Below, one piece after another: positions 21,801-51,400 of a DNA stretch of 64,000 nt (positions are counted from its first letter, which is position 1; every line of letters starts with the position of its first letter). The stretch is taken from positions 662,183 to 726,182 of the forward strand of contig NW_003314320.1 in NCBI RefSeq assembly GCF_000143415.4. The letters run 5' to 3'. A program made the position numbers and the translations under genes. The notes beneath the pieces were generated by a model. It made no database searches and was not told the DNA's origin. It saw only the letters and a list, made by a program, of their open reading frames with translations. Origin of the DNA: Selaginella moellendorffii. Its lineage: Eukaryota > Plantae > Lycopodiophyta.

Positions 21801-21866
<66 letters not shown>

Positions 21867-22303: not shown

Positions 22304-25300
22304 GTCAAAGCTCCTTGAGAGGAGGTGATGATGATCACTTGCACAAGTGATGATCTCCCCCTCTTCTCCGCTACTCCTCCACGATCTTTAAATGCTGGGA
22401 ATTCCTACAACCAGGTTGCTGATCTCAGGAGGAGGGAGTGGAAGAGGAGGAGGAAGAAGGGGAGGAGGAGCTTGTACCTTGGCCTTTCCAACTGCAAACC
22501 ATTTATAACTCTGGGCCTGTTGCTGTGCTAGGAGGTGAGAGAGCACTGATTCTGCTGCTGCTATATACTGCTAGAATGCTGCTGGCCTGGCTGCTATGCT
22601 GTGCCTTTTGCCTGAATTCCTCCCTGCTTGAATTCAATGCAATTCAATTCCTTTGGTCGTCGAAAAGCTCTCTCTCCAGCTGATCTCCTCTCGAGCAGTT
22701 ACTCGTACCGCAAACGAGAAACTTGATGGCGAGCAAAGGGAAGTACTTTTGTTACTGCCGCCCCAAAGCAACGCAGATCGCGAGATCAGGAAGCGGTAAG
22801 AAGGAAGGGATACTCCCCCGGGAAGAAGCTCTCTTTCTCTTTCTCTCACTCCAGGAAGTTGAAGAACGTCCCTCACTCACAGACAGCTTTGACAAGAGCT
22901 CTCGCGATGCCTCGATGGTGGCGATGGATCAAATCACAAAGAAGAGATGGAGGAGGAGGAAATTCGTCGTGTCGCTGGCGAGAGAGAAAAGAAGTAGAAG
23001 AAAAAGAAAAGAAAAGCTGTGTGTGTGTGTGTGTGTGTGAGAAAGAGTCTACTCCTCAAAGTTGTCACTTGTCTATCTATTCCAAGTCCCTGCGGCTGCA
23101 CTTTGCTCGTTCATTAATTTTCCTCGCTGCTGCTACGCCCTGCGCCACACTGCTCGCCTCTGCTCCACGAATGCGACCTTGCAAACTCCCACACAAACAA
23201 AACCCTTGCTTTGCTTTGGCTTTGCCCACTCAGATGATCCTCAAATGCTCCCTCCCTGCTGCCTCCACACACACTACAGACACTCTTGAAATCTTCTCAA
23301 ACGCTCCTCTTGATAACAAGTGTGAGCCGCTCTCTGTGAGTCTGTCACTCTACAAATCGAATCTACTATCCACACACGCGCTGCTGGAAAAACGAGAAAG
23401 TTTCCTCCTTTCCTCACCTCTTTAGAGCAAACCTTACAGCGAGGGGGAGAGAGAGAGAGAGAGAGAGGTGGGGGATGCGGAACGAAACAAAACAGGGGAG
23501 ATTACAGTAAGTTTGTCGATCAAGCGCCGGGCGCATAAGAAAGGAAAAACAAAATGTCGATGATCCAGGGATCAGAAGGCAGGGAAAAAGAGATGACAGA
23601 CAGAGAGAGATGGATGGGACTGTCACAAATCGCGCTGCCGCTGCTACTGCTGCTGCTGCTACTCTCTCCTCTCTCTCTTTTTTAAGTGAAGAAAAAAATA
23701 AGAAAGCTCTCGTTTTCGCTTGTAATTGCTTTGACTGGATGGAAGCTGATGATCGATCGAGAACTGGGCGATCGCTGTCGAGTGCGAATCGAAGACCCAG
23801 AAGGCGAAAGCCCGAGAAGACCCAGATTGTGGAAAAAAGAGACAAGGAAAAACAGAGTGAGCCAAATTGGAGACCTTCTCTCTCGCCCAGCTATATAACT
23901 ATTTCGACCATAGCTATGGGACTCCCCGGTCGCCTCTGCGATTGCCACATTGGCCCCAAAATCTCGTCAATTGATTTGATCCATTCAAACAAACCCCGGA
24001 TTGATCGATCGAAGGAGAACTCCTTGCAGCCCATCACTCAGGGGGGACAAAAGAAAAAATACCGGAAGAAAAAAAGAATAGAAACACTCGTGCCTGAACT
24101 GCTAATTTCTAAAGATTTCAAACAAAGGTATGGAGCGTCGATCCATCGAAATTATTGCATTGTTGAGCGACGCAGGTTTGATCTGGTCTTCCACCTCGTC
24201 CTCTTGCGCAATTCTTACGGGAATTTCAATCGAGGTTTCTATAGACCTTTTTCTTCTTTTTTCTATCGTTTTTTATGCGGCCGCTGCTGCCGCGCCCGAG
24301 AAAAAAGAGTAGAAATTTAGGCAGTTATTAAGGAGATGGGATTAGTTTAGTGGGGGTGACGAATGCTTGTCTGGGGATCGGCCGACACAACGGCATTTCC
24401 TACGGATATTCGGCCATGCATTCACTTATTTGATTAGGGCGGTGGCTACTGACGTGTAACAGTCCGCCACCTTTCTGCTTTGACAGCAGCAGTCAATTTG
24501 CAAGCTTTTATCTTTTTCTAATCAAAAAGTTCTTAAACCCTAAACCAAAAGAATGTATGTCGTGTTTGTCAAAGTGATCGATTTTGCTGCTTTTGTAAAA
24601 GGCAGTCAAATGCCCACCAATGACCACCTTTCCTATGGGCTGATAGCAGTAGTTTACAAATTTTGATCATAATATATATACAACTCGCAGATGTGATCTG
24701 CTGGTCATGTGTTTGTATGCCGTGTTGTTTATTTACCATGCGTTGGTTGTAGTAGAGGTATACATTTGTTTATGGCTCCGAGCAATTGTTTAGGGGTTCT
24801 TGTATTTACCCTACAGTGGTATCTGCGTCACGCCGTCAATCCACCCGGAAATCTTTCCACACTGGCTTGATGTTCACAAATTTTATACACTTCCACCAAG
24901 TAGCCACTACATTGCGTGCTGCTGCTCTACTCGACCGAAAGAAGCGCATAAAATATGCCCCCAAGATAGATCATAGACATGATTTCTCGGGTGGCAGAAC
25001 ACGCTCGATTGAACAAACACTGAGACAGCGCTTGATATAGACAAATCCAGTTCTTTTCACTTTTCCAAACGCCTCGAACAAACCACGATTGATCCTGATC
25101 AGACGCAACCCAATAGTAATGTTTCACAGCTCAAAGGTGATGGGGACATTGTCTCCCGGGGATTCATACACGCAAGAATCTATCTTTCGCTTAAGCAGCT
25201 TGACTGAGAACGGAAAAATCTAGCATGGAAACATGCCACATACAGAATAGATTTTGTACTGATCGCGGCTACTACGTAGATACCACCAGGTCAAAATATT

Positions 25301-27699: not shown

Positions 27700-30480
27700 C
27701 CTCAACTAGAATAGCTCGAGATTATAGTGGTTGTGGTGGTCATGGCGGTCGTGAGTATTGGAAAATAAAAAGGCACAATGCCGTAACTTTCTTGCACACT
27801 ATGAGCAATCAAAATGGCATCATCAGGGGTGGTAGAGCCATTCTTGTTTGGAGGAGCGCAAACTGCAACACAATGTTATCATTGCCAGGAATGTGAGAAT
27901 GGTCATCAAGATGTTGTCTCTCAAAACAACAATAGTGATGCTAAAATACTTCTTGTAAATCATTTGGAAAACTAATGGATGTGTCTAAAGTCTTGGAGGG
28001 TTTATATACATATCTCATCCTTCTCTAACATGAACAGATAATAGGAGGTGTTTTGTTATTCTTAACCGTCTGTGGATGACATGAGGTCTCTTGTTATTTC
28101 TCGATTTATATTTGTCTTCTCCAGAGTTATTCATGATACTAAGGTGACGGTCTTAGGGCATTGTATCTCTGCAATCTCCAACATTCCATGGTCTCTAGTT
28201 TAAAATTACAAGAGGTCTCATGTTCTTAGATTTGTGAGGTGTTTCTGCTGATCATAACTCTTTACCCCAATTGTTATCTATGGCATATGTGCCCTTGTAA
28301 CTTGGGGAGTATAAACACACTCTTCTATTACATGTGAGCCCAACCAAGTTTACGATATGATCTTGGGTGTTAATTGGCTACATGCTACTAAGGTTTATTC
28401 TGACTTTGAGAAGAACTTCCTCACTATTCCAAGGCATCATTCCTTTGTTGCTATTCATTGTGTTTGCCAGGGCTCCATAGCTATTATTGAAGATCTTCCT
28501 CCTTCACTTCCTAGGCCCTCTCCTACAGAGCAGGCTCAAGATGTAAAGAAGTTTCTTACTCATTTCTTAAAGCTATTTGGTCCTTTTAATCAGACTAAGT
28601 CTATAATGCATACTCAACATAGTATTTCTACTCTAGATGTGAAGAAAGACTTTGTCAATAATCTTAAAAGAAGAAGCATATGAATAAGTGTATGAGAGAG
28701 AAGTCCATGGGTTGACTTTTGTTGTGAATATAATTGTAAGTATTGAAAGTTATCTGTTAGAAAGTCCTTTTAAATATTATTATTTTACTACCATGATAAT
28801 AAGAGATTGGTACTATCATGCTTCATGTGTTAGTCCCATTCACTATTTATGGAAAGTGTTATATCTACAGAATGTAAATACTGTTTAAAACACAATGGTA
28901 TTGTTCCCACCCATATCCAAATTAATAATTTAACACCATTCCATATTAAAAAAGAGGGGGGGGGGGGGGGGGTAAAAATATATATAGTAGAGACAATGGG
29001 TAAAATAGGGTAGGTATGGCTGACCAATTTAAAAAAAAATCCAAGTTTCCCCTTGGGGGCCATCTTTATTTTACATTTACCTTGGGTTTAATCCCAAGTT
29101 CTATACAATGTTAGTTCTTGGAGTACTCATATCCTCACATTAGGCCATTGATATGTTGAAATAACACTAAATTTTATTTGACTTTATTTTGCATGTTGAT
29201 CTTGGCATTGGGATGTTAAATGCTCTAAGATTGTTTTAAAATCACTTTGTGCTCCTATCCTTTCACTCCGTAAACTATACATTTGAAAGTAATTTAGTGC
29301 TTCAGTTCTTTTAGTTTTTAATTATATGCTTAGGAATTTAGCATTGTCCTTTTGTTTAATGGTTTATTTGAAACTCAAGTTCTACTCCACTACCCTTAGC
29401 CCACATGTCTAAGGTTTACATTCTGCTCTATGGTTATCTAATGGTAAATCACTATAAGGTAAAGGATGAAAACCACATGTTCTACAAAGTTAAATGAGAT
29501 TAAATATGCATTTTATAATTGACTATAGTTCTTTGAATGATATTATGGTGGTTAACTCTTGTTTGATAATTTGATAGATGCTTTTATGAACAATGAATAT
29601 TTCAGCATTAATGTATTTACAAATATCTATGGATTCTACTAATATGGCAAAGTTAGTTTTTTGAACTCTAAAGGGTTTATACAAGTTTATAATAATGCCT
29701 TTTGGAGCAATATAGGTACCTATAATATTTTAATTCAATTAAACTCACCACCACCTAAACACTATTTATTATATATTTCTCTTCTTTTCAATAAGAAGAA
29801 CAAACTAGACCACCACCACCATAAACACCATTCTTATCTAACCCATCCATTCCTACTCTATATAGGGTGAGATTATTGTTTTAGATAGTCAATTACTCTT
29901 ATAAATCCTTCTTTCTTTCTTTATATATATGATCCCACAAAAACAAGACATGGAAAATTGTTTAACCATATCCAGATCATTCATTAGTTTATTTGCTATA
30001 AAGTTTTTCAATCAATCTTTACAAATATTTGTAATTTTTTTGTAGAGAAGGAAGAGGCTATGCTCAAAAAATATTGAGGCTGTTTATGGTGCACTAAATG
30101 ATAATACTATTAATGCTATAAAGAATGAAGATTTATATTAAACATTAGAGAGTTTTGAATTTATTATGGATTTCCATCTTCAAATTTTACATCCTTTATT
30201 TAATTCTCTACTCAAGGCTTAATAAAAATGTTTTAAAGCTTCATAACCAAGCTTATTGCATATAATTAATAGTCAAGAGACTCAAGAATACAATATTGGT
30301 CCAAACAAACATCTATCCACTATTATACTAGTCTATTGAAAAAATTATACAAAGGTTTGAGGAAATAAAACTTGAATTGATCAAGCCAATGATAAAGAAA
30401 GGCATTAATATGGGTTTAAATTGAAATATGATAGCAAACACTTTTTTTGCTTTATAAGGCTTGTTAAGGCAATTCACATA
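27700..30480 (+). mobile_element. Highly decayed, AT-rich LTR-retrotransposon gag-pol remnant (boundaries approximate)
   Basis: Retropepsin-like YDMILGVNWL (~28350), RNase H-like YERE motif (~28690) and an APILSL RT-RH connection remnant (~29250). No long ORFs. Confidence 0.5.
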
Positions 30481-30798: not shown

Positions 30799-31021
30799 TT
30801 TGCTAGATGATGTGAGACACAAAATCCCTAGGCCCCAAAGTGGCCGAAGCAAAAGCCAAATGAACGTAACACGTTTGGACTTTGGACTGAAAGCTTCGAC
30901 TTGAAAGGTTGAGAGCAGAAGTGGAACTCCCAACAAAGTGCTCAAGGAACAAGCACGAAACGAGCAATAAGCGAGGCTCCAAAAAGGGACCCAAAAGGAT
31001 CAGCACATGACATGTGGAAGT

Positions 31022-31520
31022 GTCCGAGATGGACCGAGACGGAGTTCTAGATGGAGTTCGGGATGGACCGAGACGGAGTCCGAGATGGAGTTCGAGATGG
31101 ACCCAAGATGGAGTCCGAGATGGACCAAGACGGAGTCCGAGATGGAGTTCGAGAGGGATCTGAGATGGAGTTCAAGATGGACCCGAGATGGAGTCCAAGA
31201 TGGATCCAAGATGGAGTCCGAGATGGACCAAGACGGAGTCTGAGATGGAGTCCGAGATGGACCCAAGATGGAGTTCGAGATGGACCGAGACGGAGTCCGA
31301 AATGGACCGAGACGGAGTTCGAGATGGACCCGAGATGGAATTTGAGATGGAGTCCGAGAAGGACCTAAGATGGAGTCCAAGGTTGAGACCGAGGCCGGGA
31401 CCGAGACTGGGATCGAGACCGAGACCAAGACCGAGATCAAGACCGAGACCGAGACCGAGGTCGAGGCCAAGTCTGAGTCCGAGTCCGAGTCCGAGTCCGA
31501 GTCCAAATTCGAGTCTGAGA
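31022..31520 (+). repeat. Short-unit tandem arrays (GAGATGGAGTCC/GAGATGGACC, then GAGACC/GAGTCC) inside the LTR of A
   Basis: Visible 6-12 bp periodicity. The same array with a different copy number is at ~51333-51900. Related hexamer arrays occur in the B LTRs (~35120-35390, ~48500-48780). Confidence 0.9.
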
Positions 31521-34500
31521 GGGTGAAAGCCCAAAGCGTTTGTCTCCTAGACCCTAGGGGGTTTAGTGAGCTCCAAATGTATAGTAAGGGGGAGGAATGC
31601 AGTGGAGCCAGTTTGGCCAGGAAAGGCCAGTTTGGCCCAGGAAGGCTATACCCAGTGTTAGGTGATGAGCTGCCCACTGGGAAGTCCAAGACTAGAGTGA
31701 ACACGGACGGACAAGCAGGGTAGTTTGGTGAAGTGTTCAAGAGCCGGTTCTAGTTCCCCCGGGAGATCGACTGGCCGATGCTCCCAGTCCAAGTGTGGGT
31801 GGCACTACCTACTTGGATACCTGGCATGGCTCAATGGAACTTTGCTCTAAGCCCATGGCTAGAGCACCCAAAGATGGAAGGCGGGGAGAGTACCCATGAG
31901 GCTCGCATAAGGCTGTGGTGTTCCGAAATGTTGCCCCAAAGTCCCAAACTGTGAAAAGGAGGAGGAACTGTCCTCTAGTGTAGAGACCAAGGATACAGTC
32001 ATGTGAGGAGGTAGTCCCAGAGGACCGAGGGACTTAATGGTCGGGCTTGTGGGCCTTGATCTAGTGGCAATGTTGGTGAACATAGCCATGGACAAAAAGG
32101 GACTTGGTGGGGACTGGAAAAGAGATATTGGGGAAGGCTAATCCCCATGTCTGTGGGCATCCTAAGGATGCTAAGGAGTGGATCAGGGATGATCATTCAT
32201 GGATGGATGACCCAGTCTTTGAGAGATGGGACTGTGATGCAGATGGTGTTAGACCACCGGTATGACCAAAGTGAAGGGGCATGGCCTTAGCGTAATAGGT
32301 TGATATGTCGATGGTACCTTGGGGTGTCGGTCATGGGATCAGACACGTGGAGCACTTGGACCAAGTGCAAAGGTTGAGTGGCATGGATGTCATTGTTAGG
32401 GTTAGCAAGTCCCTAAGTCCAGAATGGGACTTATGGAGGTTGTGAGTGAGACTCCTCCAAGTGGTTGAATGTATGGTTAAGTGACTAAAGTAGAATGGAA
32501 AAATTAATCTCTTACAATTTGGTATCAAAGCCGTTCCTTAGTCTGACTTTTATTGGTGCTTAAGTATATCACCACTTGTGTTGGCATCGGAAGGTCCTAG
32601 GAGTGGGCCTATCTTTGAGGAGTAGCAAGTCGGGAAGACATGGCTCTCCACTCAAGTTCATGCGTGAACTTGTGTGCAATGTGGTGGATGGAAAAGGGCT
32701 AATAAGGGAACAACTTTGGGATCTTGGGAATAGCATAAGGGTTTCCTCGGAGAGTTGAGGATGTGATCCAAATGAGCATTTGATGCAACAAATGGGCTAA
32801 TATAGTTATGGTAAACAATTATAGTTGGGATCACGGGAAAGATGCAGACTCCAAAACAATAAAGGAGTCACAAGAATACCCTCTTGACGTTGAGGCTAGT
32901 GCTCATGAATTTGAGACCAAAATTAATGACCGTGGAAGGTCAAATACGGAAAAGGACACAAGTCCTCGAAATGGTAGTCGGAGCTACCTCTAATAAATGC
33001 TGGAACAACCCAAGGAGTTTGGGGTGTACTCAGAGGATGAGATGGTATTCTCATCACATGGACAAGTGGTCCTAAGGGGCAAAAGGTTGCCCTAAGAGAA
33101 CAAATCAAGTGTCAGAGTAACACTTGCAAAGATGGTCTTTGTGAGTAGGATGCGAATACAAGAAGTTGTATTCCAATGAGTTAGCACCTCAGAGGTAGGA
33201 CCTCATGGGTTGTCGAATGACAAAGTTTAAAAAGCTGGATGACTCAAATAGAGTCAAGGAATAATCCTAAAGGATTGATGGAAGCATTTGGACTAAGGTG
33301 TGTTGTACCCTACGAAGGATGGGGGGGATCATAGGATCCAAAGATAAGAACAAAGGGTATTTCATCGATGGTAGAGTGGGCCATGCTAAAGTCATGGGAA
33401 AGGTGTTCCCAAAAAAAAAAAAAGCAACTTTGGCATAGAGTTGTGTGTGAACACTATGGTGTAGTGCTAATTGATAGTTGGCATGAAAAATGACTGTTTT
33501 GGTCTTGGCAAAGACCTAGACATAAGTAAGAAGTGTCATAGAGGTAAGCTCATGGAGCCATTAGTGTGGAGACACCAAATGTGCCAAAGTAAGATACCTT
33601 GAGGTTATGTTAATGGGTTCATAGGAACCTTTTGCCAAGGGAATGGCATAGCCTAAACTAGAAGGCATGTGGTTGGAGTGTGGTGACCCAGCACCAAGTA
33701 ATGAGTTGTAGGACTTGACAATTATGGGGCAATTAAGCGAGAGATGCAAGATAATTGGTTAAACGGGTAGAAAGTAGCTACCCAAGACTTCTTAATGGCA
33801 TAAGGAAGTTAGATATACCCTTACGAGGGATAAATTGCTTATGTTGCGATATAGTAAGTCAATGTCGAAAAACAAAATGCTCATTATCAAGGAGACTATC
33901 ATTAGGACACCCAAACGCTCTGGAACACTAGAAGGTGGTGTTTAATATTGCGAGGGCAATAGATAAGGCCCAAAGGACTAAGTCCTTAGCAAATGATGGA
34001 TAGGAGATGCTATCCAAATGTCCAAAGTTGTGGAGACGGGAGGAATCCGTCTACCCGATTTGGACAAAGCTAAAAATGGGATTTTGGCAAGACTAGTGAT
34101 GGGCATATGGAGGCCCATAAGTAGCAATAGTAATCCTAGTGTGTGGGATTATAAAGTGAGCATGCCCAGATTGAGGAACCACTCCCTAAGTTATTGGGTA
34201 GGTTCATCACTATAAACACTTGCTAAGGCATGGTAAAATGTGGAAAGTTATCCTTTTAGTATGGAGGAGAATAACCAAAGGAAACATATGGGGCCAAAAG
34301 GCAAATGTAAGCCACAAAATTTTTCCTTTCCAATTTGCCAGCTTACCTTGTCTATTTGACCAACACTGCCTTGGCTTGTGCTAAGTTCCCTCGCCAAGGT
34401 TCCACCTATTTTACCAGCTTCTACTTGGTCCTACTTGGTTTCAGCTACTTACTGTACGAGCAACGGAGCGTTAGCCATCCATCCACGGATTCCCAAATCT

Positions 34501-36251
34501 CTCCCAATCCCCCTCCCCGGGTTAGACTGGACTTAAGGTTTGGCTACACTCCCCACAGGCACAAGCAACCAAGCACACCAAGCCTCCAGGTTCCTAACAC
34601 CCCTTGGTACAACAAGACTTGATCATGGGACCCTCTAAATCCCAAGCCTTGGGTGCAACACTTGCTTCGGAACATCGGGGTGAAACACCGTGGCCTAACG
34701 GCCCGGCATGGGTACCTCTACCCCCCCACTTCCATCCCGAAGGGAAGGCCCAAGCCCCTAGGAAGGGCGAGGACCAATGAGCCACAAGGTACTCAAGTGG
34801 GGCACCACTCCACATGAGCCGGGAGCACCGCCGTCGGTTTCCTTTCGGGAGTGGGAGCTGCTCTTGAGCACTTCCCTAGGTGGCCCCTCCGGCACCACCC
34901 AAGCCCATGTTCACTCCCACCCAAGGCCCCTCGGCCCCAGTCTCAACCTCAAGTCAGTTTGGAAGCACCACTAAAGAGTTCCTTTAAGACTGATTCCTGG
35001 ACTTCACTATCCCTACTATACTTTTGGAACCCCCTACAGAACCCCCTACAGCCCCCCCCCCCCCCCCCCTGGGAGACGCACGCTTTGGGCTTTCACCCCT
35101 TGACCCGTATTAGTATTTGGACTTAGTCTCAAATTTGATCTCGGACTCGATCTCGGACCCGACTTCGGACTCGGTCTTGGACTCGATCTCAGACTCGATC
35201 TCGAACCCAGTCTCGGACTTGACTTCGGACTCGACCTCGGACTCGGTCTCGGACCTGATTTGGATCTTGGACTCTGTCTCGAACTCGGTCTCGAACTCGG
35301 TCTCCAATTCAGCCTCGGACTTGATCCCGGACTCTATCTCGAACTCGGTCTTAGAGTCGGTCTTGGACTTGATCTTCGACTTGGTCCCATCTGATGAACA
35401 CTTTATCATTTTGGTCATGCTTTCGGGGATCCTTTACCTATGACACCTCGGGGAGTCGGTTCCTTACAACTCCACCACCCATAGAAGAAGTTCGATGCCC
35501 ACATCGAACGTCTCTTTTTATCCTACAACTTGTTGACCATGTCTCCAGGGGCATCCCCCCACTTAGCGGTGTGCCTAAGTTAGCCTCCCCGGCCAAGAGC
35601 CCATGACAACAGAATATAGGTGTCCCTATACCCCTCACCTCACCAAGCCCTAGTATGGTGTCAGGACTTGAACCCAGCCTTGCTTTACTAGGGGGTTGGG
35701 ACTCGAACCCAACCTTCGTAGAATATGTCTACGGATTCGACATCCCCGCAAGGAGTTGGGCGTAGTGCCCTATGCCTGGTCGACCTAGCCAACCCATGCT
35801 AATTAGCTTACCTTCGGCACGCCTTCAGGTCCTAACATATGCCATTGCTCAACTTCACAAATTGATATTTTAATTGAACTTTGCATAAGTACATAGAGTT
35901 CTGCCTTGCAGAAATTCCTCCATTAGATCTCGCGCGTTCGCTAAGTTCTCCTCTGGTTCCCATATTGCTTTGTAGTGTGGAAATCCTTTCCACTTCACAT
36001 GAAACTCTCTCACCTCGCGCCCTCGTCGCTGGCTCTTGCGCGCATTGAGGATGGCCTCGACTTCGTATTCTTCCTCCCCTTGGATAACCTCAGGTAAAGG
36101 TCTTACTTAGTCCTTCCAAAGCGGATTCTGAAAGTACGGCTTGAGTAAGTTCACGTGGAACACTGGGTGCATCTTCCCTATCTCTCAGGGAAGTCGGAGA
36201 TGGTAAGCCACTTTACCGATTCGTGCCTCAATTTCGTAAGGCCCCGTGAAC

Positions 36252-36303
36252 CTGCTTAAGGAACTCAAGATCAATTCATTTACAGGAATACATGCATTTT
36301 TAC
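36252..36303 (-). other. Putative 52-nt spliceosomal intron just before the integrase GPY motif of element B
   Basis: CAA AG|GTAAAAATGCATGTATTCCTGTAAATGAATTGATCTTGAGTTCCTTAAGCAG|G TTC ACG GGG CCT TAC. Removal gives KLTQRFTGPYEI. Confidence 0.8.
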
Positions 36304-36721
36304 CTTTGGGTCAACTTTCGGGTTATCCCACTTGGTAGCCTGAGGTTCTTGGTGTTCAGCCACACCTTCTCCCCAGCTTGGAACTCTACGTCCCGACGCT
36401 TCTGGTTTGCGTACTTGGTTTGCCTTTGTTGAGCCCATTCCAAGGAATCCCTCACTAGATTCCAAATGCTGAGTCTTTCCGCCGTGAATGCCTCCACTGT
36501 AGGTAACTCTCCATGATACTCGGCCACGTCGAGTTCCACAGGACCTTCAATAGCTCGCCCATTGATGACTTCCTATGGACTCACCCCGATATTCGAATGT
36601 GGTGAGTTGTTATAACACATTTTCGCAAGTCCCAAATGACTTACCTAATCGGTCTGGTCTGCCGAAACATAGCATCGCAAATAATCCTCCAATTGCCTAT
36701 TCACCCTTTCCGTTTGTCCGT

Positions 36722-36762
36722 CTGTCAAGAAGTGTTATCAAACTTGACTTAATGCCCCATAC
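36722..36762 (-). other. Putative 41-nt spliceosomal intron in the integrase catalytic core of element B
   Basis: ACA A|GTATGGGGCATTAAGTCAAGTTTGATAACACTTCTTGACAG|AC GGA CAA ACG GAA. Removal gives YHPQTNGQTER and exact D-x35-E spacing. Confidence 0.75.
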
Positions 36763-39700
36763 TTGTCTGTGGGTGATAGGCTGTGCTGAATTTCAACTTG
36801 GTGCGATATTGTTCCAGGAGAGTTTTCCAGAACCTACTAGTGAAGATCTTATCTCGATCTGAGATAATCTCTTCTGGCCTTCCCCACACTTGAACCACTT
36901 GTTCGAAGAATAGCTTTGCCACACCTTCCGCATCCACTTCCATTGTGGTGGGTATGAAATGTGCCATCTTCGAAAATCGGTCCACCACCACGAATATCGC
37001 ATCAAACCCCTCGCTTGGGGGGAGTCCTGTGATAAAGTCCATCGTAAGACACTTCCACGGACAATCTGGAATTGGGATGCTTTGCAACAAGCCCCCACTA
37101 GCCTTAGTCATGGCTTTGACCTGCTGACGTGTTGGACATGTCTTTACATAGTCTTGGACGTCCTTAGCCATATCTGGCCAATGGTACTTCCTCTTGAGTA
37201 AGCCTATCATCTTGGGCACTCCGCCATGTCCCGCAAGAGGTCCGTCATGACACTCTTTTAAGGCTACCTTCCTTAGTTCCCCTTTTGGAACATACACCCT
37301 CATTTGCTTATAATAGATGAGTCTGTTGCATTCTGCATAGCCCGTTTTCTCTTCCGTTGGCAACTCACCTCTCTAGTGAGCTTCTCGTGCCTCTAGATTC
37401 CTTAGCAACACTTCTTGTGCTAGACCATCATTCTTATATGCTGTCCATACATCGTCCCAAAGGTTGTTGTCGCATTGGATCGCCAACTTCAAGCTCGCTT
37501 TTCGACTTAGCACATTTGCCACGATGTTGCTCTTCCCAGGCTTGTACAAAATCTCGCAATCAAACTCGGCCAAGGCATTGGCCCATCGACCCTATTTCCC
37601 TCTCAGGTCGGGCTGTGACAAGAAGTGTTTCGTTGCCACATTGTCCGTGTAAACCTTAAAGTGTCTCCTAAGGTAGTGTTGCCACTCCTTGAGTGCCTTG
37701 ACCACCACAAACAATTCTTTCTCGTGGGCAGGCCACTTCCTTTGAGCCTTGTCCAACTTCTTCGAGAAGAACGCTATTGGATGGTTGTCTTGCTTCAAAA
37801 CTGTGCCCAATGCAAAGTCTGAAGCATCTGTTTCAACCTCAAAGTCCTTACCAAAGTCTGGTAATGCCAACACGGGAGCCTTCCTCAACTTTCCTTTGAG
37901 GTGGACGAATGCCGCCTCGCATTCCGTTGTCCATACCATCTTCCCTTTTCCCGTTTGGTCCGTTAAGGGCAGGGCTACTCTCGAATAGTGTTTGATAAAC
38001 TTTTGGTAATAGTTGCATAGCCCCAAGAATGCCCTCAACTCATGTACATTTGATGGTCGCTCCCATTCCTAGATTGCTTGGACCTTCTCCGGGTCCACCT
38101 TGAGCTCGTCCTAGCCCACCACATGCCCGAGAAATTTTACCTCTTGTTGAGCAAAGTCACATTTGCTCTCTTTAGCATACAGTTTATGTTCCCTTAGTTT
38201 CTCAAACACCTTGGTCAAGTGTTCGACATGCTCCTCTAGAGTCTCACTATAGATCAGGATGTCATTGATATAAACAACCACGAAGTGATCCAAATAGGGT
38301 ACAAAGATATGGTTCATCAATGCCGAAAATGTTGCCGGCGCATTGCACAGCCCAAAGGGCATCACCAAAAACTAAAAGCTCCCACACCTCGTTCGACAGG
38401 TTGTCTTCTCGACATCTTCCTCTACTACCCTGATCTAGTAGTATCCTAACTTTAGGTCGATCCTCGAGAAGTATTTTGCCTTTCCCAACTGATCGAACAG
38501 GTCCTCAATCCTTGGCAAAGAATACTTGTTCTTCTTTGTATACTTGTTAAGCAACTGGTAGTCTATGCACATGCGCATAGATCCATCTTTCTTTTTCACA
38601 AAGAACACCGGCACCCCATACGGTGACTTGCTCAACCTAACATACCCTTTGTCCACCAACTCCTTTAGTTGGCACTTGAGCTCCTCGAGTTCTTTTTCGT
38701 TCAAACGATAGGGGGGATGAACCACCGCCTTAACACCCTCGACTAGCTCAATCTTATGTTCCAGTCGTGTGAGGGGCAACCCCGCCGGTAGCTCCTCTGG
38801 CATGGTATCTTGGAATTGGTCCAACACCCACTGGATCACTAAAGGTACTTCTTCCGTTCCTGTCTTTTTGTCACTCTTCACCGAGAGTAAGCACAAAATG
38901 CTGCCTTAGTTCCTTTAGTGAGTTGTCCTTCCATGGACACCAGATTTAAGCAAGAATCTTTGGCCTTGCTTTGCCCTACCTTCAGATCTTGGGCTTCCAC
39001 CCTAGATCTTTTTCCTTGGGCATTCGCTAGTACCACAAAGTTTCTACCTTGTCCATAAAGGGCTACCACGAACCGATTGAACCAATCCATTCCGAAGATC
39101 ACGTCAAATCCCGCCATGTCCAACACGGTGAAATCCATGTCCACTTTCCATGTCCCTACTTCAACTGTCGCTTGTCGAAGTACCTCATTGGTGCTTTGGC
39201 TACCTTGAATAAACTCTATAGTCCTTGGTTTGCCTAGCCGCTGCACCATTAGTGTGGCTTGCCGGACTATGTCTGGAGCCACAAAATTATCCGAAGCACC
39301 CGTGTCAATAAGGATCTTAACAAAGCTACCTCTGAGCTTGCCTTGGAGGGCTAGTAGATGTCGCGAATGACTCTCTACCAAAGTTGCTCGTGTAATGAGT
39401 AACTTTGAGTTAGGGACTGGATCACATACCTCAGTTTGGACTTCACCCGACTTGATGGCCATATTGGCTCTAGCCTTCTTTGGGTAGGGACATTCCCTCG
39501 AAAAGTGTCTCGCTTCACCGCAATTGTAACATATGTTGTTTCCCATGCTGCTATATGACTTGACTTTGTTATCCATGGGTTTGTCTCTTTTTGCTTAACT
39601 CCCCCATGTACTTGCTCACTGGCCATCGGACTTGCCTTTCCGGAACCCCGAGGACTCATTCTTAGAGAAACTCTTCTTGAATTTCCCTCTGCTATACGTT

Positions 39701-41230
39701 CCCCTTGGTTTGGTCCCTTTGCTAAGCGTGGACCCCGACCCCGTCATGTTCCCCTTTCGCAGTTTATCGTTGAAATGCACCTTGATGGCCGCATCCAACA
39801 CTTCCTTGCAGTTGGTTGGGCTCCAATGCATCACCTCACTGCGAGCCCAAGTTTGCAAACCTAATATGAAGGCATGGAACGCATCCATATCCCCCATGTC
39901 TGTGACAAGTATCCTCTTTGCCATAAACCCATTCACATACTCCTGAATGGTTCCGGTCTGCTTCAGCCTACTCAGCTCGTCCCTTAGATGCAGAGTAGCA
40001 TTTGGAGGAACGTAAGTCACGCGGATCCTCGCCTTCATCATTTCCCAAGTGGCCACTGATCCTTCGTTGGCCTCTGTCGTTCTCTACCAAGACTTGGCAT
40101 TATCTGCTAAGTATGGTTTTGCACATAAGACCTTCTCCGAGCTTGGTAACCACAACGCTCGGAAGTAGTCCTCCATATTGTAAAACCAATCCTCCACCAC
40201 CTTATAGTCGTTCACTCCCTTGAAGACCAGTGGGGGCTTTGGTTTGTACTAGGGAACTGCCTCACTGGAGTCCTCCTCATGCAAGGATTCCTCATCCATA
40301 ACCTCTTGTTTGGCCAGAGGCTCCAGCTCTGGCGGAGGTTCCGTCTCCGCCTGGGTTCGCTTATGCCCTGCCTTTGCCATCTCCCAGTAATCTGCCTCTA
40401 TCCTTTGCTAGAACTGAGGAAGAGGCTCCGATACCAAATTGTAAGCCACAAAAGTTTTCCTTTCCAATTTGCCAGCTTACCTCGTCTATCCGACCAACAC
40501 TGCCTTGGCTTGTGCTAAGTTCCCTCGCCAAGGTTCCCATCTATTGTATCAGCTCCTACTTAGTCCTACTTGGTTTCAGCTACTCACTGCACGAGCAACG
40601 GAGCGTTAGCTAAACCTTAGTAGCCGAACCTTAAATCCACGGATTCCCAAATCTCTCCCAATCCCCCTCCCTGGGTTAGACTGGATTTAAGGTTCGGCTA
40701 CACTCTCCACAGGCACAAGCAGCTAAGCACACCAAGCCTTCAGGTTCTTAACACCCCTTGGTACAACAAGACTTGATCATGGGACCCTCTAAATCCCAAG
40801 CCTTGGGTGCAACACTTGCTTCGGGACATCGAGGTGAAACACCGTGGCCTAACGGCCCGGTATGGGTACCTCTACCCCCCCACTTCCATCCCGAAGGGAA
40901 GGCCTAAGCCCCTAGGAAGGGTAAGGACCAATGAGCCACAAGGTACTCAAATGGGGCACCACTCCACATGAGCCAGGAGCACTGCTGTCAATTTCCCTTT
41001 TGGGAGTGGGAGTTGCTCTTGAGCACTTCCTTGGGTGGCCCCTCCGGCACCACCCAAGCCCATGCTCACTCCCACCCAAGGCCCCTCGGCCCCAGTCTTA
41101 ACCTCAAGTCAGTTTGGAAGCACCACTAGAGAGTTCCTTCAACACTGGTTCCTAGACCTCACTATCCCTACTATACTTTTGAAACCCCCTACATCCCCCC
41201 CTCTGGGAGATGCATGCTTTGGGCTTTCAC

Positions 41231-44200
41231 TGTAGCGCACGTGGTTTTGACCCTTTATCCTATGGTGATTTACCATAGGATAACACCACGAAGCGGAACC
41301 TAAACCCTCTTTGTGCCACGTGACAGATGCCACATGTCACATGCCACATGTCCATAGGAACCCGAGGTTCAGGGCCTTGGGCCACTGAACGAAGGAACGG
41401 TGCCAAACTCCCAAGCGTGGAGCCAAGGAGTGATGGAACCGGACCACGGAGCAACTCCCGAGCATATAGGCCAAGGAGCGAAGGGACAGGAGCCCGGAGC
41501 GACTTGGAACAGTCCTGAAGCAACCAGCATCCCAATGCCAGGACTAACACGCAAAACGGAGCCAAACGGAGTCTGGCGCTATTTCGGCATACCGATGGCC
41601 TAACGTGAGGATATGGGTACTCCACCAGCTAGCATGGAATGGAACTTGGGCTTAGACCCAAGCCGGACGCAGAACAAGGACAAGCACGCAAGCGGGAGCT
41701 AGACTATGCCTCAGGTTGGTCGGCCATGCCCGACCTACCCACTATCCCTACTATACATTTGGAACCCCCCACAGCTCCCCCCCCCTTGAGGAACACACGC
41801 TTTGGGCTTTCACCCCAAGCCTCCCTTAGTATCAGGAGTTAGTCTCTAGGACAAGCTCGAAACTTACTAAATATAGAATGTCCCTAGATTGCGAAATTGG
41901 ACACGGAACGAACACCATTGTGTTCAGGCCAACCTCTACATTCCGTAGATATGCCAAATGAGCAAATCTGGACACTTTCCATAATTAGCATTTAGGACCG
42001 AAATGAGACTAACACAAAGGGCATGATAGCGAGGGTGTTTGGCAGACACGGTAAGCTATCATGTAGCGATATTGAGGGACCAATCTCAATACGTGAGGGT
42101 TCTTGTCACTAGCCAGTGCAAGACATAACGAGACGGGAACTCCTTACCGGGCTAAGTATGCTTAGCTAATAACACGTAGGAATTCCGTCCTTATGCTCGT
42201 CCGGTCTAAGTACACTCGAAATGCCCAGTTAACTCCACTAGCACAAGAGGGACTGATAAAGGGTCCAGCAATACTGACCTCCTGCCGTCGTGGCAGTAAG
42301 GTAAGAGTGTCCGTAAGGACTGGTCGACAGGTAACTTTCGATACCCGAAGTCACATTCGCGACACTCTCCCCCCCTTGGGAAGATCGACATCCTCGTCGA
42401 TGCACACTTGAGTCTAGAATACCGCCAAGGAAACAACTCCAGAAAAAGTTCACGGTACTCACACTATGTGAGAAATGCACCGACTTAAATGAGTTAGGGG
42501 GAACCTCTTTGTCTAACGCTGATGCGCTACCAGCTCAGACACCTTTCGGCCGTCACCGACAAGGAAATGACCAACGGAGTCAGCCACCCTTGCTGCTCTG
42601 GGTGTCACCCAGCTACAAAAGTGTGATATGCCCTGCCCGCAGGAACATAGAGAGAGAAGCCAGAGGCCCCAACCCTCCTGAGTAAAGAAACCAAACCCGT
42701 CGGTAAGGTTTAGATAGACTACTGTAAACAGGTAGTGTAGAGTTGTTTACACGGTCACGCCCTTTCACAGAATAAGGAACATCGACAGAGAGGCAGGTTA
42801 TGTGACCAGTCGACAGTAGCTATCCCATGACTAGAGATTTCAACATGCACACGAAGTGCCGAAGCCAGTCTGCCTATACTGGCCCAAACTCAACGAGCAA
42901 TAGATGGACAATATCAAAGTCAGAGACAATGATATCTGAGAAGCTTAATTACTAGTGATTATATCTTAGAGTAGAACACAAAAGTATTCCACATAAGTTA
43001 TCATCCGATAACCTAGTATTTATAGTGTAGGAACCACCAAGATCATCAGTTCGGGAAATATAGGATTAACCATCCAACAAAATTCAATAGCAAGTAGATC
43101 ATCAAGAAAACTCAATGAGGAAACTTAACTACCAAAAATAATAGATAGTAAGCCAACAACTTACTAGAGAGAACTCAAAGAACACAAAGTATCATTGACT
43201 AACAAGCACAATGCTCGTGAATGTATCACCCAAAGGAAATAACATCCAAATCTATCAAAACTAACTCGAGCAACGATCAACAGAAGAGAATGAATGTGGT
43301 AAAACCAACAAACACTCATGCCTGCCAACTATCACAAAAGCTAATCTGAATAGATCCCAGCCAACAACACCAAGGAACTCAAGTTGCCTAAGCAAGTGTT
43401 AGCAACATCCTACTGATGTCTCAAGCCCAAGAGACCAAACCAAAGCAAACCACAAAGAACATGTGGTATTGCAAAAAGCCATAAGCTATCAAAGAGAATA
43501 ACTAACCATCATGAAAGATCATCAATCATTCCATCAATAAAGAGATGCATAATCATCGTCTAAGAAGGAATCCACCATCCCGAAGAACGGCAAACCATTC
43601 TATACCAACAATAATCAAACAAAACTTTTTGACATGGATAATCAATTATCCTAGATGATAGTCAATCATCACCAATGATTGCTAGATGCAAATACTAACT
43701 TCAACATTGAAGCTAATGAGCCAAAATGCCTTCCCCAACAACTTCTAACAAATGGAACAATGAGCATAAAACTCAAAGAACCAAAGCTCGAAGAAGCCTA
43801 TAGCCAAGTCTTGCTTAATAATGATCACAAGTCTCATAGAAGCTAACTTCAATGCTAAAGAAGTAATCATGGTGCAACCCACAATGTCTTCTTCAATACA
43901 TCCATAAGCCAAACTTCATAATGCCAAAGCTAATGAAGAGCATTTCTGCATCAATCCAAAAGCTAAGCACAATGGAGCTATGCTCAACAAGTGATCACTA
44001 AATGATCCTCCATGAATCCATTTATAGCAAGACGTAACTCACTTCATAGCAAGCACAAGAAGAATCATCAATGATAGATATTTCAACTAAAATCCCAAAA
44101 GGATTCAAAATATTCCAACATCAATCACTAACTCTCCCACTTGTAAAGTTAGCATAGTCCATGACTAAATCACTTTTCAAGGAAAAGCTCAAAGCTCAAC

Positions 44201-47200
44201 CCCTACTAAATAATCTCATCTAGAACACAACAAACTCAACTTGCCACTCAGTTCATTTGAACGTCAACACAGTTGCTAATTAGCAAATGCATGAATGCCA
44301 ACAACACAAAGCCATAGCCAAATCATCAACACTATCTTCATTAAGATTAATAAAACTCAATATCAATCCTAAGGAGAGACATCTCATTTCACTTTGAATC
44401 TCAACCTCAATAATGTCAACGACAAGGCATCACTTCAATGCCATCAACACCAAAACAAAGCTAGAAGAAAGCACGAGTGAATCACCACTCGGAGCTTTCC
44501 AGCAACCAAGCTAACCAAAGTCGAAGATACTATACGTAGTATCCGAGACCAATCCTTCAGCAAAACTTAGTTTCAGATAACACATCATCAAGGAGTGAAT
44601 CACCACGTCCAAGACTCAATGAAATCCAACACTACGGACTAGATGTAACCCAATGATATCGACAGAGGTAGAGTCGATATATCAACATGAAAAACTCATG
44701 TAAGTCTAACGACACAATCCTCCGCAACACCATTCGATAAAGCAAGCCCATCACTGCTGAATCATCATCGAGCAAAGCAAGTGTCAACAGTCCTTGACGA
44801 AGTCAACAAGCAATCACTAATTGCAAAGCAACTAACACTCACTCCTCAACTTGCCTTCACAAGACCTAAACACCAACTCTTGTCATCAAGTTATATACTT
44901 GTCCAACATGAACATAATACCGCAGGTACGAGATAAGAGTTCATAGACAAGCACAAACTAAATGACCACTCGAATCCAACTCAACCGCAATAAACTCACA
45001 AAAACATTTAGCCATTTAGCTCTGAGCATGCCTTGAAGAGGCTAGCTATACAATCAACACTCAGTCGAAACTAAAGTGAAGACCATGAGATGGACTCATA
45101 TTGGTACACAACTTCCTCATAGACAAAGCTATAGTACGGGTACCAACATCGCAACCTCAAACAACAAAATTGGATATCACCATCCTCAGCCAAGGCACAG
45201 GGCCACCAAGACCAAGTCAAGATTAGTGAGAGCTCACTACTCTCATAGAGTCTAACGTAATGCAAGGTACAACCTGCCACTAAGCACAACGCTACAAAAG
45301 AAAGGTACAAGGGTCACCTTTCTGAGAAAAGTGCAACGGCCACTTTTCTATATCAACTCTAGACTCTATCCAACTCAATTGTTTTAGCCCCAAAAGTTAA
45401 CATCCCTTTCGGGCCGCATTATACAAACTACTTACTAAGATCTAAGCCAACTGAAGTCAACTCCAACCTCTTCACTAGTTTGTATTGGCTTACGAAAACG
45501 GAATGGTTTTCGGTAAAGTGACCAACAGATCAGCCATTGGAGAAGTCTAAGAAAATTTGTGGAAAATTTCCCATCCTAGAGAAAGAATGACTCTCAGTCC
45601 AGGATTGCAAACTTTCAAGACTCAACCAACTTCCTCCTACCTACAACTTCACATAGGTTCACCTCAACACAAATTCTCATGATCCATCAATATGCTTAAG
45701 CATCAAACATCTTTGCCCATTTTCCCGATATCCAACTTCGACATCCGCAAAATGCAAAATGAACATCCAAGGCTTGATCACAAAGACCACATCTTCGGAT
45801 ATCCATATTGCACTAACACTCTTCTTCAATCACCTTCAAGATCCAATGTGAAGCCAAAACACTAACAAGAAAAATGACATGGAAAAAAATCAAGATCCAA
45901 GGAAAATTCCTCATCACTTGAAATAACAATGCCACTTCCACTAACACAAGTGCTAGCAATGTCAATGCCTCAACTACACACCTTCTCTATACAACAATCT
46001 ACTCCAAGTGCTAATGGACCAACCGACAAGTCATAGCAAGTGAATGCTATAACCCTTTTTCAACACCAATGGGCAAACTCAAGGAAACAAAGTACCAACT
46101 TAAGCTTAGCACAATGGATCACCTCCAAGAATCCAATTAAAGCTACTACAATGCTACTACGTGCAGGTAGACTAGCTTCACCATCAACCACTTTGGGGTT
46201 GATCATCATTTACCCAAGCAACTCTGTAAACACATTGCTCATTATCACATGGATATGATATAAATCACAATGACTTGATCATCAATTGAGTAACGCAATG
46301 AGCAATGCTTATGTCATTACTTCAAACGTTTATGTGAGTATCAAATGCCAACTCGATTCGACAAAATGCAACATAAATGCCACACTCCACCAATAGAGAT
46401 TTACGACACCCAACACCACTAACTTTTGTTCACAACACAGACAAGCTCATGCCACTCTCTTTCCGACCAATCTCAAAACTATTCCAACACCAAGCTACTC
46501 AAGGAGAAATAGCAAGGTTCCCCGGAAAAGAATTGAGCATTGCAACCCAAGCCTTTCAATAGCGAGCCTAGACAAAATGGTTTAGTGTTTCACCACTATC
46601 CATCCCATAACTCACCACTTGTAAGACCATCACTACCAACATGCATCAAGGTAGGGACTCTTGATTGCATAATGTGAACACAAGCAATGAGTTAACACCT
46701 CGTTGCAAATCATCTCTCCAAAAATAGAAAATGATTTACGTATTTGATCCTTCGTCCCCGATGACTCTCTTTTCAGTCTCATCTTTGACTAAACTTTAAG
46801 CTTGCTTTCGCACTACCTTCAGTTCAATCCAAGAAAAGTTTATGAGAGAGCACGGCCATGACTACTTGAACCAATAGACTAATCCCTATAGTCTTAATTG
46901 TTCCACTTATAATCATGCCTAGGAAGGATCCACTAGTGCCGTGCTAAATAGCTACAAACCAGCCTATTTGCCACTCATAGCAAACCCAGAGAGTTTGCTT
47001 TCACCCATGGCACAAGGAACAACTCATAGAACCACCGATAGGCTAACATTAATCCTGCCAACTCAAAGTGTAACCTCGAGTTGCTAATGCGCCTCACTCA
47101 CGAGCCCAAGCGCAAACTCCTGTAACAAAACAATTTAGTCCACCCTATGAGCCCAAGAGCAAGCTCACATATTATGAAACACAGAGGTAACCAAAACCTA

Positions 47201-48481
47201 TCCCAAGGAACTAATGTGAAGTTTTTGCACCAAAACGTGTACCCACTCGGATCATCGTTTTCATCTCTGCGTATGCAACGAGACTAGTTGCCCAATCTCA
47301 TTGGATAGTTCTCGCCGAGACTCTACCTCTGATACCAAATGTAGCGCACGTGGTTTTGACCCTTTATCCTATGGTGATTTACCATAGGATAACACCACGA
47401 AGCGGAACCTAAACCCTCTTTGTGCCATGTGACAGATGCCACGTGTCACATGCCACGTGTCCATAGGAACCCAAGGTTCAGGGCCTTGGGCCACTGAACG
47501 AAGGAACGGTGCCAAACTCCCAAGCGTGGAGCCAAGGAGTGATGGAACCGGACCACGGAGCAACTCCCGAGCATATAGCCCAAGGAGCGAAGGGACAGGA
47601 GCCCGGAGCGACTTGGAACAGTCCTGGAGCAACCAGCATCCCAATGCCAGGACCAACACGCAAAACGGAGCCAAACGAAGTCTGGCGCTATTTCGGCATA
47701 CCGGTGGCCTAACGTGAGGATATGGGTACTCCACCAGCTAGCATGGAATGGAACTTGGGCTTAGACCCAAGCCGGATGCAGAACAAGGACAGGCACGCAA
47801 GCGGGAGCTAGACTATGCCTTAGGTTGGTCGGCCATGCCCGACCTACCCACTATCCCTACTATACATTTGGAACCCCCTATAGGCCCCCCCCCCCCCCCC
47901 CCCCCTTGAGGAACACACGCTTTGGGCTTTCACCCCAAGCCTCCCTTAGTATCAGGAGTTAGTCTCTAGGACAAGCTCGAAACTTACTAAATATGGAATG
48001 TCCCTAGATTGCGAAATTGGACACGGAACGAACACCATTGTGTTCAGGCCAACCTCTACATTCCGTAGATATGCCAAATGAGCAAATCTGGACACTTTCC
48101 ATAATTAGCATTTAGGACCGAAATGAGACTAACACAAAGGGCATGATAGCGAGGGTGTTTGGCAGATACGGTAAGCTATCATGTAGCGATATTGAGGGAC
48201 CAATCTCAATACGTGAGGGTTCTTGTCACTAGCCAGTGCAAGACATAACGAGACGGGAACTCCTTACCGGGCTAAGTATGCTTAGCTAATAACACGTAGG
48301 AATTCCGTCCTTATGCTCGTCCGGTCTAAGTACACTCGAAATGCCCAGTTAACTCCACTAGCACAAGAGGGACTGATAAAGGGTCCAGCAATACTGACCT
48401 GCCGTCGTGGCAGTAAGGTAAGAGTGTCCGTAAGGACTGGTCGACAGGTAACTTTCGATACCCGAAGTCACATTCGCGACA
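41231..48481 (-). mobile_element. Non-autonomous LTR element C (LARD-like), inserted in the 5' LTR of B
   Basis: Near-identical LTRs 41231-42364 and 47340-48481. Perfect TSD TTCAC (41226-41230, 48482-48486). PBS TGGTATCAGAG 47327-47337 (minus); PPT 42365-42375. About 5 kb of internal sequence with no recognisable coding frame. Confidence 0.95.
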
Positions 48482-51400
48482 TTCACCCCTTGACTCGTAT
48501 TAGTATTTAGACTTAGTCTTGGATTCGATCTTGGACTCGATCTCGGACCTGACTTCGGACTCGGTTCTTGGACCCAATCTCGGACTTGACTTCAGACTCG
48601 ACTTCAGACTCGACCTTGGACTCGGTCTCGGACTCGGTCTCGGACCCAATTTGGATCTCGGACTCTGTCTCGAACTTGGTCTCAAACTCGGTCTCCGATT
48701 CGGCCTTGGACTCGATCCCGGACTCTATCTCGAACTCGGTCTCAGAGTCGGTCTTGGACTCGATCTTCGACTCGGTCCCATCCAATGAACTCTTTGTCAT
48801 TTCAGTCATGCTTCCGGGATCCTTTAGCCTACGACACCTCGGGGAGTCGGTTCTTTACATCAAGTAGTATTGGGATGGAATTGAACCATAGAAATCGAAG
48901 GGCATAACCAACAGTGGTTATGCAAGTTGAGAGTGGAGAATCAAGAGGGTGCTCGAGGATGTTGTTACTAGCAATTGCGATGCCATGGAGAGTCTAAAAT
49001 GTGGAATTATCCATGTTGGACCATATGGTGAGTAGGGAGCTTGCAAAGGAGAAGCCTTAGCAAGCTAAGGAACAAAGTTCCTTAAAAGTTCCCGAAGACA
49101 ATTCTAGGTAGATAAGTACCTAGAAAGCCAAGTGTAAATGGTTCCTAGAGTGCGCAAAATCAGAGTGGTGCAATAGAAGTGTGGTCTTGAAGCTGGCTAT
49201 GAGGTGAGGCTATCAAAATTGGGGAAGTAGTTCCCGAGTGTTCAAAGAGAGGGCTTTGAACAAAAGTCGATGGTTAAGGACTTTCACGCTTATGCATGAA
49301 CCATGTTACAGTGGCCGGATGACTTGCTACGCGAGATTGGCGAGTCAGAGGAACAAATCCCCTAGTTTAAGGTGCTAACTTCAAAAGGGGTGGCCCATAG
49401 GGCCGAGCATGGAGGAGTCCATGCATGATCACAGACTTGTCAAGTGAGAGGACTTAGTAGTGAGGAGGAACTAGGTTCCAAAGCTGTGATCTATAGTGCG
49501 CTTTAAGTACAGGTTGGTGCACCGGCATGGGGACTCACGCCAGGCATCCGGTGTGATGCCGTCCGTAGATGCATATATGGAGGTTGGGTTTGAGTCCCGA
49601 CCCTCTAGTGCTTGGGTTCGAGTCCCAAATCACTAGGGTGTGGTGATGGTTTGGAATATGAGGACACTCATATTTCGGTGGTCATGGACTCTCAGTGAGG
49701 AGACTAGCTTAGGCACACCGCCAAGCAGGGGATGCTCTAGAGTTGTGATGCACAATTAAATTGTTTAGAGTGAAAGCTCGACATATCTAACTTGAACACT
49801 TTGGTGCAAAAGGCACCAAGGATGTGGTGAATGAGATGGGGACACCTAGTCTTAGTTGCTATAGATCCTTGGCCAGAAGGGCTGGCTTGGGCACACTGCA
49901 AGTGTGGGGGATGCCCCTAGGGTCATAGCCAACAATCTAAAAGGGTCTAAAAAACCTAATTCCTATTGGTAGACCTGTTAAGGGGTCAAGATGAGATCAT
50001 TAGGTGATCTTGTGGCTAAACAAGGACAAAGTCCTTGTGAGGTTAAGGGATAAAGTTCCTAGTTCAAAGTGTTGGTTTGAACTATTGATGATGGTGTGGC
50101 TTGGTCAAGATGATCAAGTGGGAAGAACACCTAAAGGAAATGATTTGTGACTATGTGATGGCATAGTGAGTCCGAAAAAAGTAGTCTCTATAAGAGACCC
50201 ATGGGAAGGTCACAAAGTTGGGCCAGGGATAGAGCCTACAGTAGAAAATCCTAAAGAGACCTACTAGGGGTGAATAGCCTTTGAACTTGGCAAAACAAAG
50301 TCTTTGCTATGGAACCGAAAGGATACCTCAAGAATAGAGGTAGTGACCCAATGTTGTTGGGTGCAACAATCAAGGATAAGAGCAAAGGACTAATGGCTAA
50401 GAGAAGAGCCATGGGAATCATGGGAAAGAATCCAAATGGCAAACTTAGGCCGAGAACACTAATGTGTTGGGTGCTAACAAATTGTGGGAAAGGCAATGTT
50501 TTCCCAGGGATGGATTCCCAACCACTCCAATTTGGCAAAAGTGGAAGCTCCAAGAGGGGGAGCAGTAAGGTAGCCAAATAATAAGGCCATAGGTAGCCTT
50601 AGCACAAGTTATGATAACTGGAACTTAGTGCCAAATGTGGCATGATATCAAAGAGGGGATGATGGTGCCCTCAAGTAAGAACTTCCTAGGATGGAAAAGT
50701 GGAGTTGCACCATGGGCAACGTAAGGTGTTGGGGACATCTAGGAAATTGACTATGAGAAGTCAAAATTAAAAGTTCTAAAGTGCAAAGGATATCTCAATT
50801 GAATTTGAGACTACTCGAGAATGAGTAGTGGAACTGAGTTAGAGAGGGTGTCTCTAACGGGTTTAGCGAGAACTGACCCAATAAAAGGGAGCAAACCACC
50901 CTAGGTGGTCTAGTTAGTCTCTATGTTGAAGAGGCTATGCTCCTTAGAGGATAGACAAGCCATGGTGAGCCTTCGGAGTCAAACCATAAACAAATATTGG
51001 TTGGGTGCCAAGGATGGAAATGGTAATACAATGTGGGTGTTACTTTATAAAAGGGTTTATTGTTCGATGAGGACATCAAACTTCGTTTATGGGTGGTGGA
51101 GTTGTGAGACACAAAATCCCTAGGCACCAAAGTGGAGCTGAAAGGGTGCCACATGGTAGTGGCCGAAGCAAAAGTCAAACGAACGTAACACGTTTGGACT
51201 AAAAGCTTCAACTTGAAAGGTTGAGAGCGGGAGTGGAACTCCCAACAAAGTGCTCAAGGAACAAGCACGAAGCAAGCAATAAGCGAGGCTCCAAAAATAG
51301 ACCCAAAAGGACCAACACATGACACGTGGAAGTGTCCGAGATGGACCCGAGTTGGAGTCTGAGATGGACCGAGATAGAGTCCGAGATGGAGTCCAAGATG

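Follow-up and report, generated by a model that had tools for sequence, protein, structure and literature searches.

A 41-nt insert that breaks the integrase frame of a Ty3/gypsy chromovirus in Selaginella moellendorffii is probably (we put the probability at roughly 0.6) one of two short spliceosomal introns present across a chromovirus family, likely SM1-Galahad, in which the integrase would need splicing while the unspliced RNA would be the form copied into DNA. The element lies on the minus strand of the 64,000-nt stretch of DNA analysed here, referred to below as the window. Both inserts resemble host introns in their splice signals, both seem to be shared across the family rather than confined to this copy, and a read in one RNA data set appears to skip the region of the first.

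Two inserts in the integrase of a decayed chromovirus

The LTR pair and the Pfam domains identify the element as a Ty3/gypsy chromovirus. Between the LTRs, gag, zinc knuckle, protease, RT, RNase H, integrase, an SH3-like domain and a C-terminal chromodomain follow one another in chromovirus order (gag-PR-RT-RH-IN, with the chromodomain last). The 3' LTR (34306..35468, minus strand) is about 1.16 kb long, has TG..CA ends and a poly-G tract, and is preceded by a purine-rich tract (35469..35480, minus). The 5' LTR is split into an inner part (40440..41230, minus) and an outer part (48487..48859, minus) by a nested element. The two LTRs are 91.3% identical (1043/1143 columns), and 91 of the 100 mismatches are transitions. 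The primer-binding site (40425..40436, minus), 3 nt from the LTR, is of a type that we take to be tRNA-Met. The region from gag to RNase H (37373..40380, minus) is decayed, with in-frame stops and one frameshift near 38895. With the nested element left out, and with a probable deletion in gag near 40260, the chromovirus measures about 7.3 kb. As it carries 14 in-frame stops and one frameshift in all, the window copy is a dead relic. An Rfam search over 34200-41300 gave 0 matches.

The integrase is divided into three predicted exons. Exon 1 (36763..37372, minus) encodes the H2C2 zinc domain and the part of the core with both catalytic aspartates (PF17921, PF00665), the second of them at codon 36857-36859. 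Its structural match is Ty3 Gag-Pol (7q5b, E 1.2e-31), and foamy virus integrase was also matched. Exon 2 (36304..36721, minus) holds the catalytic glutamate at codon 36708-36710, and exon 3 (35870..36251, minus) holds the remainder of the SH3-like domain and a group I chromodomain at about 35909-36067 (PF24626, PF00385); each of these two exons has two in-frame stops in the window copy.

Insert 1, the putative intron 1, occupies 36722..36762 on the minus strand. Reading that strand bears out the initial annotation on its main structural points: the insert is 41 nt long, begins with GT and ends with AG, and brings in a stop codon at 36749-36751, so that the unspliced frame ends ...STAYHPQTSMGH*. 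It lies in phase 1, has a branch-like TTGAT at -20, and breaks the frame four codons before the catalytic glutamate. Removing it also gives the D-35-E spacing that had been claimed, since 31 residues between the D of ISDRD and the break, the junction codon and G-Q-T add up to 35. Among 120 homologous integrases, the PQTxGQTx motif is unbroken in 113; the spacing is 35 in 97 of these 113, and in the remaining 16 the D-motif pattern found nothing. Because removal of any clean insertion would restore frame and spacing, their restoration does not by itself point to an intron. Nor need the position four codons before the glutamate be special, as any stop-carrying intron upstream of that residue acts alike.

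Insert 2, the putative intron 2, spans 52 nt (36252..36303, minus), again from GT to AG, with AG/GT at both ends and a branch-like TTGAT at -23. A stop codon lies directly inside its donor, so the integrase frame is broken a second time, here within the SH3-like region. Of 120 homologues compared at this site, 24 fell under the score cut, and 81 of the 96 scorable alignments are free of gaps.

Several other features of the window were recorded. The outer flanks of the chromovirus (34301-34305 and 48860-48864) match at only 3 of 5 positions, giving no clear target duplication, and SM1-Galahad is likewise reported without one in PMC3350952. The nested LTR element (41231..48481, strand unassigned) belongs to another family and has a perfect 5-bp target duplication, LTRs 97.1% identical and no pol match; with a relative at 54441-61543, it likely represents a large non-autonomous family. 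The LTRs of several elements contain short G+C-rich tandem units that create long low-complexity open reading frames (30839-32516, 51158-52893 and 35092-35468). A protease-like ORF fragment, seen by eye at 28315-29730, matches weakly (E 8e-4) part of a polyprotein (P0037) whose annotation includes a dUTPase domain, and is probably another old element. Two adjacent genes for small cysteine-rich peptides at 19752-22400 presumably resemble the EPF/EPFL family.

Intron-like signals and probable presence across the family

We compared the inserts with host introns using a splice-site model trained on the 14 introns of one host gene, ARI8, so the ranks that follow are rough; a host exon in the window is 100% identical to S. 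moellendorffii ARI8. The ARI8 introns measure 51-115 nt (n=14), and the host median is given as 59 nt in Table 3 of PMC3729371. The initial annotation had measured host introns at about 46-60 nt, and the lower bound of 46 nt was not reproduced. Against the ARI8 minimum of 51 nt, insert 2 falls inside the range at 52 nt, while insert 1 lies below it both at 41 nt in the window copy and at 47 nt in the family form described below. Among the 709 GT..AG pairs of 40-70 nt on the coding strand, insert 2 ranked 1st and insert 1 8th, and the donor of insert 1 rose from rank 48 to 7-12 of 255 once the family letters were used. Both inserts run from GT to CAG, and a branch-like motif similar to their TTGAT occurs between -16 and -34 in 9 of the 14 host introns. 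Judged by this 14-intron model, each insert shows the sequence signals of a U2-type intron, namely GT..AG ends, a host-like donor and acceptor and a branch-like motif, and insert 1 is most likely a spliceosomal intron.

These comparisons bear on whether the inserts could be non-intron filler that arose in an ancestral copy, acquired GT and AG ends by chance and was never spliced. Such filler would accommodate the clean restoration of frame, the shortness of insert 1, the short repeats flanking both inserts, as often in repair fillers, and the lack of a listed junction in the RNA runs. Yet in simulations only 0.8-3.9% of random 50-nt inserts could be read as GT..AG, and 0.015-0.19% could be so read and also scored at least as high as insert 1. 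The two inserts show no relationship in sequence (shuffle p 0.70). Combined, the per-insert values put the probability that both could be read as GT..AG at about 6e-5 to 2e-3, lower when scores are included. Together with the RNA read inferred to skip the insert-1 region, this makes filler a very improbable source of the inserts.

Presence beyond the window copy was assessed in run X11, whose kind is unrecorded; its depth extends to every one of the 30 bins, and the run resembles shallow DNA sequencing. All X11 contigs over insert 1 carry it, in a form with 6 additional bases inside that brings the length to 47 nt (depth 63.6 of 63.6, 2 contigs), and insert 2 is covered at 36297 with a depth of 61.4. 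Among 270 records, no joint skips either insert, and the three listed joints lie elsewhere. Since rare variants drop out of contigs, a small number of copies may lack the introns. From the high-depth contigs and the published SM1-Galahad consensus we conclude that neither insert is private to the window copy and that both are probably family-wide. By the same contigs, the 41-nt length claimed at the outset holds for the window copy and not for the family, being a shortened form particular to this copy. The contigs also have loose ends on both sides of 40258-40262, which suggests that other copies have some 250 nt of gag that are missing from the window copy.

The contigs also bear on the suggestion that a GACAG direct repeat flanks insert 1, a hint of origin by insertion with a short duplication. 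In the window copy the repeat matches at 4 of 5 positions; in the X11 contigs, where the donor-side exon ends in G (position 36763), all 5 match. With the family form the hint gains strength, yet it stays weak, because the acceptor requires AG and AG is common before donors. Taking this 5-nt repeat with the AG/GT at both ends of insert 2, the flanks of both inserts would fit insertion at proto-splice sites, most of the letters being demanded by splicing anyway. An origin by tandem duplication was considered from the flanks and not supported, the best of 4 flank tests giving p 0.034 uncorrected. Introner-type insertion found no support either: the inserts have short direct repeats at their ends, and they have no terminal inverted repeats, are unlike each other, and have no second copy within the window.

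In a wider set of 240 homologues, the motif was unbroken in 175, an early end or variation was seen in 33, and the D-motif pattern was missing in 32. The introns look family-specific, since none of the 240 has a tail hinting at an intron in the same place as insert 1. Protein searches returned no relative at the level of the family, identity reaching about 50-53% in the top matches over the full length; locus searches gave distant matches only (L001-L003), a junction pattern had 0 matches in viral contigs, and the other elements within the window had no pol match for comparison. Additionally, we examined the identity of each exon to homologues. Over the 102 homologues spanning all exons (206 tried), exons 1, 2 and 3 of the window copy are 48.6%, 35.5% and 38.5% identical, and intact homologue pairs at matched distance give 47.4%, 36.9% and 37.8% (1217 pairs). 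These values indicate no excess decay in exons 2-3, behind the introns, and are weak evidence if the inserts are young, as young inserts would give the same picture.

SM1-Galahad was described by Novikov et al. in 2012 (PMC3350952) as a Ty3/gypsy chromovirus family of hundreds of copies. In that paper the family consensus was reconstructed from multiple copies. Its ORF1, 3885 bp long, has no chromodomain and stops within the core integrase; two shorter ORFs come after it, one of 316 bp and a final one of 309 bp that encodes a group I chromodomain. The pieces are described there as three separate ORFs, and neither 'intron' nor 'splic' occurs in the main text. The window copy shares with this family the host, a size near its ~7.5 kb, LTRs of >1 kb with TG..CA ends and poly-G, and a Met primer-binding site, the last in agreement with our tRNA-Met assignment. 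It likewise has an ORF1 stopping within the core integrase, two short downstream ORFs, and a group I chromodomain on the last ORF, together with a chromo-box substitution. From ATG to stop, the two downstream pieces measure 321 and 303 nt, close to the published 316 and 309 bp and not exact. ORF1 spans 3632 in the window copy versus 3885 in SM1-Galahad, about 250 nt less, which fits the gag deletion. The element likely belongs to SM1-Galahad, an assignment made by published features and not by identity to the consensus; within the literature searched, the name occurs in a single paper.

RNA reads over the inserts

Splice-junction reads had been proposed as a check on the intron reading, and about 12% of each of three raw RNA runs yielded 9, 3 and 0 reads, with joints listed from a threshold of 3 reads. 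At that threshold and these depths, no run lists a splice joint at either insert. A search across runs also listed no holder of this sequence recorded as RNA, which counts neither for nor against splicing. The depth table of run X17 nevertheless holds information on insert 1. The table calls for no fewer than 9 reads (2+3+3+1), which leaves exactly two to account for the plus-direction depth over the integrase, about 300 letters. Of the contiguous placements, 9 fit the bins, and every one of them would cover 36736, 36754, 36758 or 36763, where X17 has no depth. The table therefore requires a read that passes over 28-94 positions including 36736-36763. By this arithmetic from the depth tables we infer that one X17 read, its ends unseen, jumps the insert-1 region over a span that allows a 41-position intron. 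A genomic copy that lacks the intron or carries a deletion could also have produced such a read. For intron 2, no spliced read was found in the three runs (9, 3 and 0 reads). The check thus gave no listed joint and one inferred skip, and the direct data support splicing itself weakly.

Read accounting also places at 36238-36393 three RNA reads that match the window over part of their length only (one in X17, two in X18). All three lie over 36297, where an A-run directly inside the donor of intron 2 ends, and the depth in exon 3 is zero. These could be chimeric transcripts, come from a truncated copy, or reflect polyadenylation inside intron 2.

A proposed division of roles between spliced and unspliced RNA

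When the spliced RNA of an LTR retrotransposon is the one copied, its intron disappears, as the Ty intron experiment summarised in PMC12786077 showed. Given introns across the family, the intron-retaining RNA would be the template for reverse transcription. Fully unspliced RNA would be translated to Gag-protease-RT-RNase H and an integrase stump without the glutamate, and would be packaged and reverse transcribed, so that the introns are passed on. The complete integrase, chromodomain included, would reach these particles from doubly spliced mRNA, and splicing of intron 1 alone is predicted to give an integrase that is catalytically complete without the chromodomain. The spliced RNA would have to be kept out of particles, for which the nearest model may be the separate RNA pools of barley BARE; it would retain the PBS, the PPT and parts of the LTRs, and nothing visible bars its packaging. 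Both introns lie in the last domain, so that particle assembly and reverse transcription from unspliced RNA stay intact; with no more than two introns, this is at most suggestive of such an arrangement. In a strict form, an autonomous family would have acquired two introns of host type within its integrase and made of them a firm split of RNA roles: the unspliced genome builds particles and cDNA without integrating, spliced mRNA alone gives integrase, and a partly spliced third form gives integrase without chromodomain. We hold this strict form only tentatively, at a little under even odds.

The initial annotation saw in intron retention a catalytically dead integrase and hence an on/off switch. 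The predicted retention product indeed lacks the catalytic glutamate, the C-terminal region and the chromodomain. A regulated switch, tuning integrase activity by tissue or stress, could draw on this truncation and on precedent: in Arabidopsis, Copia elements control the output of Gag to Pol through splicing (PMC5580714), and Ogre does likewise (summarised in PMC6317226). But retention is obligatory for RNA that is to be reverse transcribed, so it fits two RNAs with separate tasks better than a switch that may or may not be used. Inheritance of the introns requires it anyway and leaves no need for a regulatory purpose, and we regard tuned regulation as quite unlikely.

The main rival to autonomous use of spliced integrase is that the family, its inserts intron-like and their splicing incidental, spread as an integrase-defective parasite on the intact integrase of SM2-Galahad. 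According to PMC3350952, SM2-Galahad is closely related to SM1-Galahad, intact with a single ORF, and recent (LTRs 99.7% identical), and the 2012 authors found no intact copy of SM1-Galahad. BARE2 parasitises BARE1 (PMC3735527), and under parasitism it is no longer puzzling that spliced RNA has failed to take over. It leaves unexplained, however, the host-quality splice signals of two independent inserts and the missing excess decay in exons 2-3, and we consider it unlikely, if the most serious of the competing explanations.

Plant LTR elements are generally without introns, the exceptions named in the sources available to us being Ogre and the Copia gag introns (PMC12786077, PMC6317226, PMC5580714). 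In Ogre, a Ty3/gypsy element, summaries give an intron averaging 274 bp between gag-protease and RT (PMC6317226, PMC12786077). An intron of that type was considered for the window element and rejected, the break between gag-protease and RT being a one-base frameshift missing from the X11 contigs. As in Ogre, the whole polyprotein would need splicing of some transcripts and the intron is inherited; in contrast to its one intron, the family described here would have two host-sized introns of ~50 nt within integrase, one of them inside the catalytic core. With the gag splicing of Copia elements (EVD and relatives, PMC5580714; BARE1, PMC3735527) it would share different jobs for spliced and unspliced RNAs, and BARE is reported to package a separate RNA pool (PMC3735527). 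In EVD and BARE1, however, unspliced RNA gives full Gag-Pol and splicing gives Gag only, whereas here the relation would be reversed, integrase coming only from spliced RNA. Penelope-like elements also keep introns through retrotransposition, one intron being inferred in a Selaginella family, yet they use a non-LTR mechanism and have no DDE integrase (PMC8557442). Introns inside an LTR-retrotransposon integrase are not reported in the literature searched, which covers few subscription papers and no Repbase, and REXdb tables may annotate the family; the accessible parts of PMC13148404, PMC7175516, PMC5718144, PMC12477816, PMC6839031, PMC2864245 and PMC6157073 contain nothing on integrase introns. 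The element family is already known, and the intron reading of a high-copy family appears to be new.

Retrotransposition normally erases introns, and a family that keeps two of them within an indispensable enzyme offers a natural test of the choice between translation and packaging, as well as a datable case of intron gain. If the strict split of RNA roles is true, a spliced RNA otherwise fit for packaging must have been kept out of particles over hundreds of rounds of copying. A family published as lacking intact copies may also have been misread: ORF-based annotation scores intron-bearing elements as broken, and SM1-Galahad is possibly such a case.
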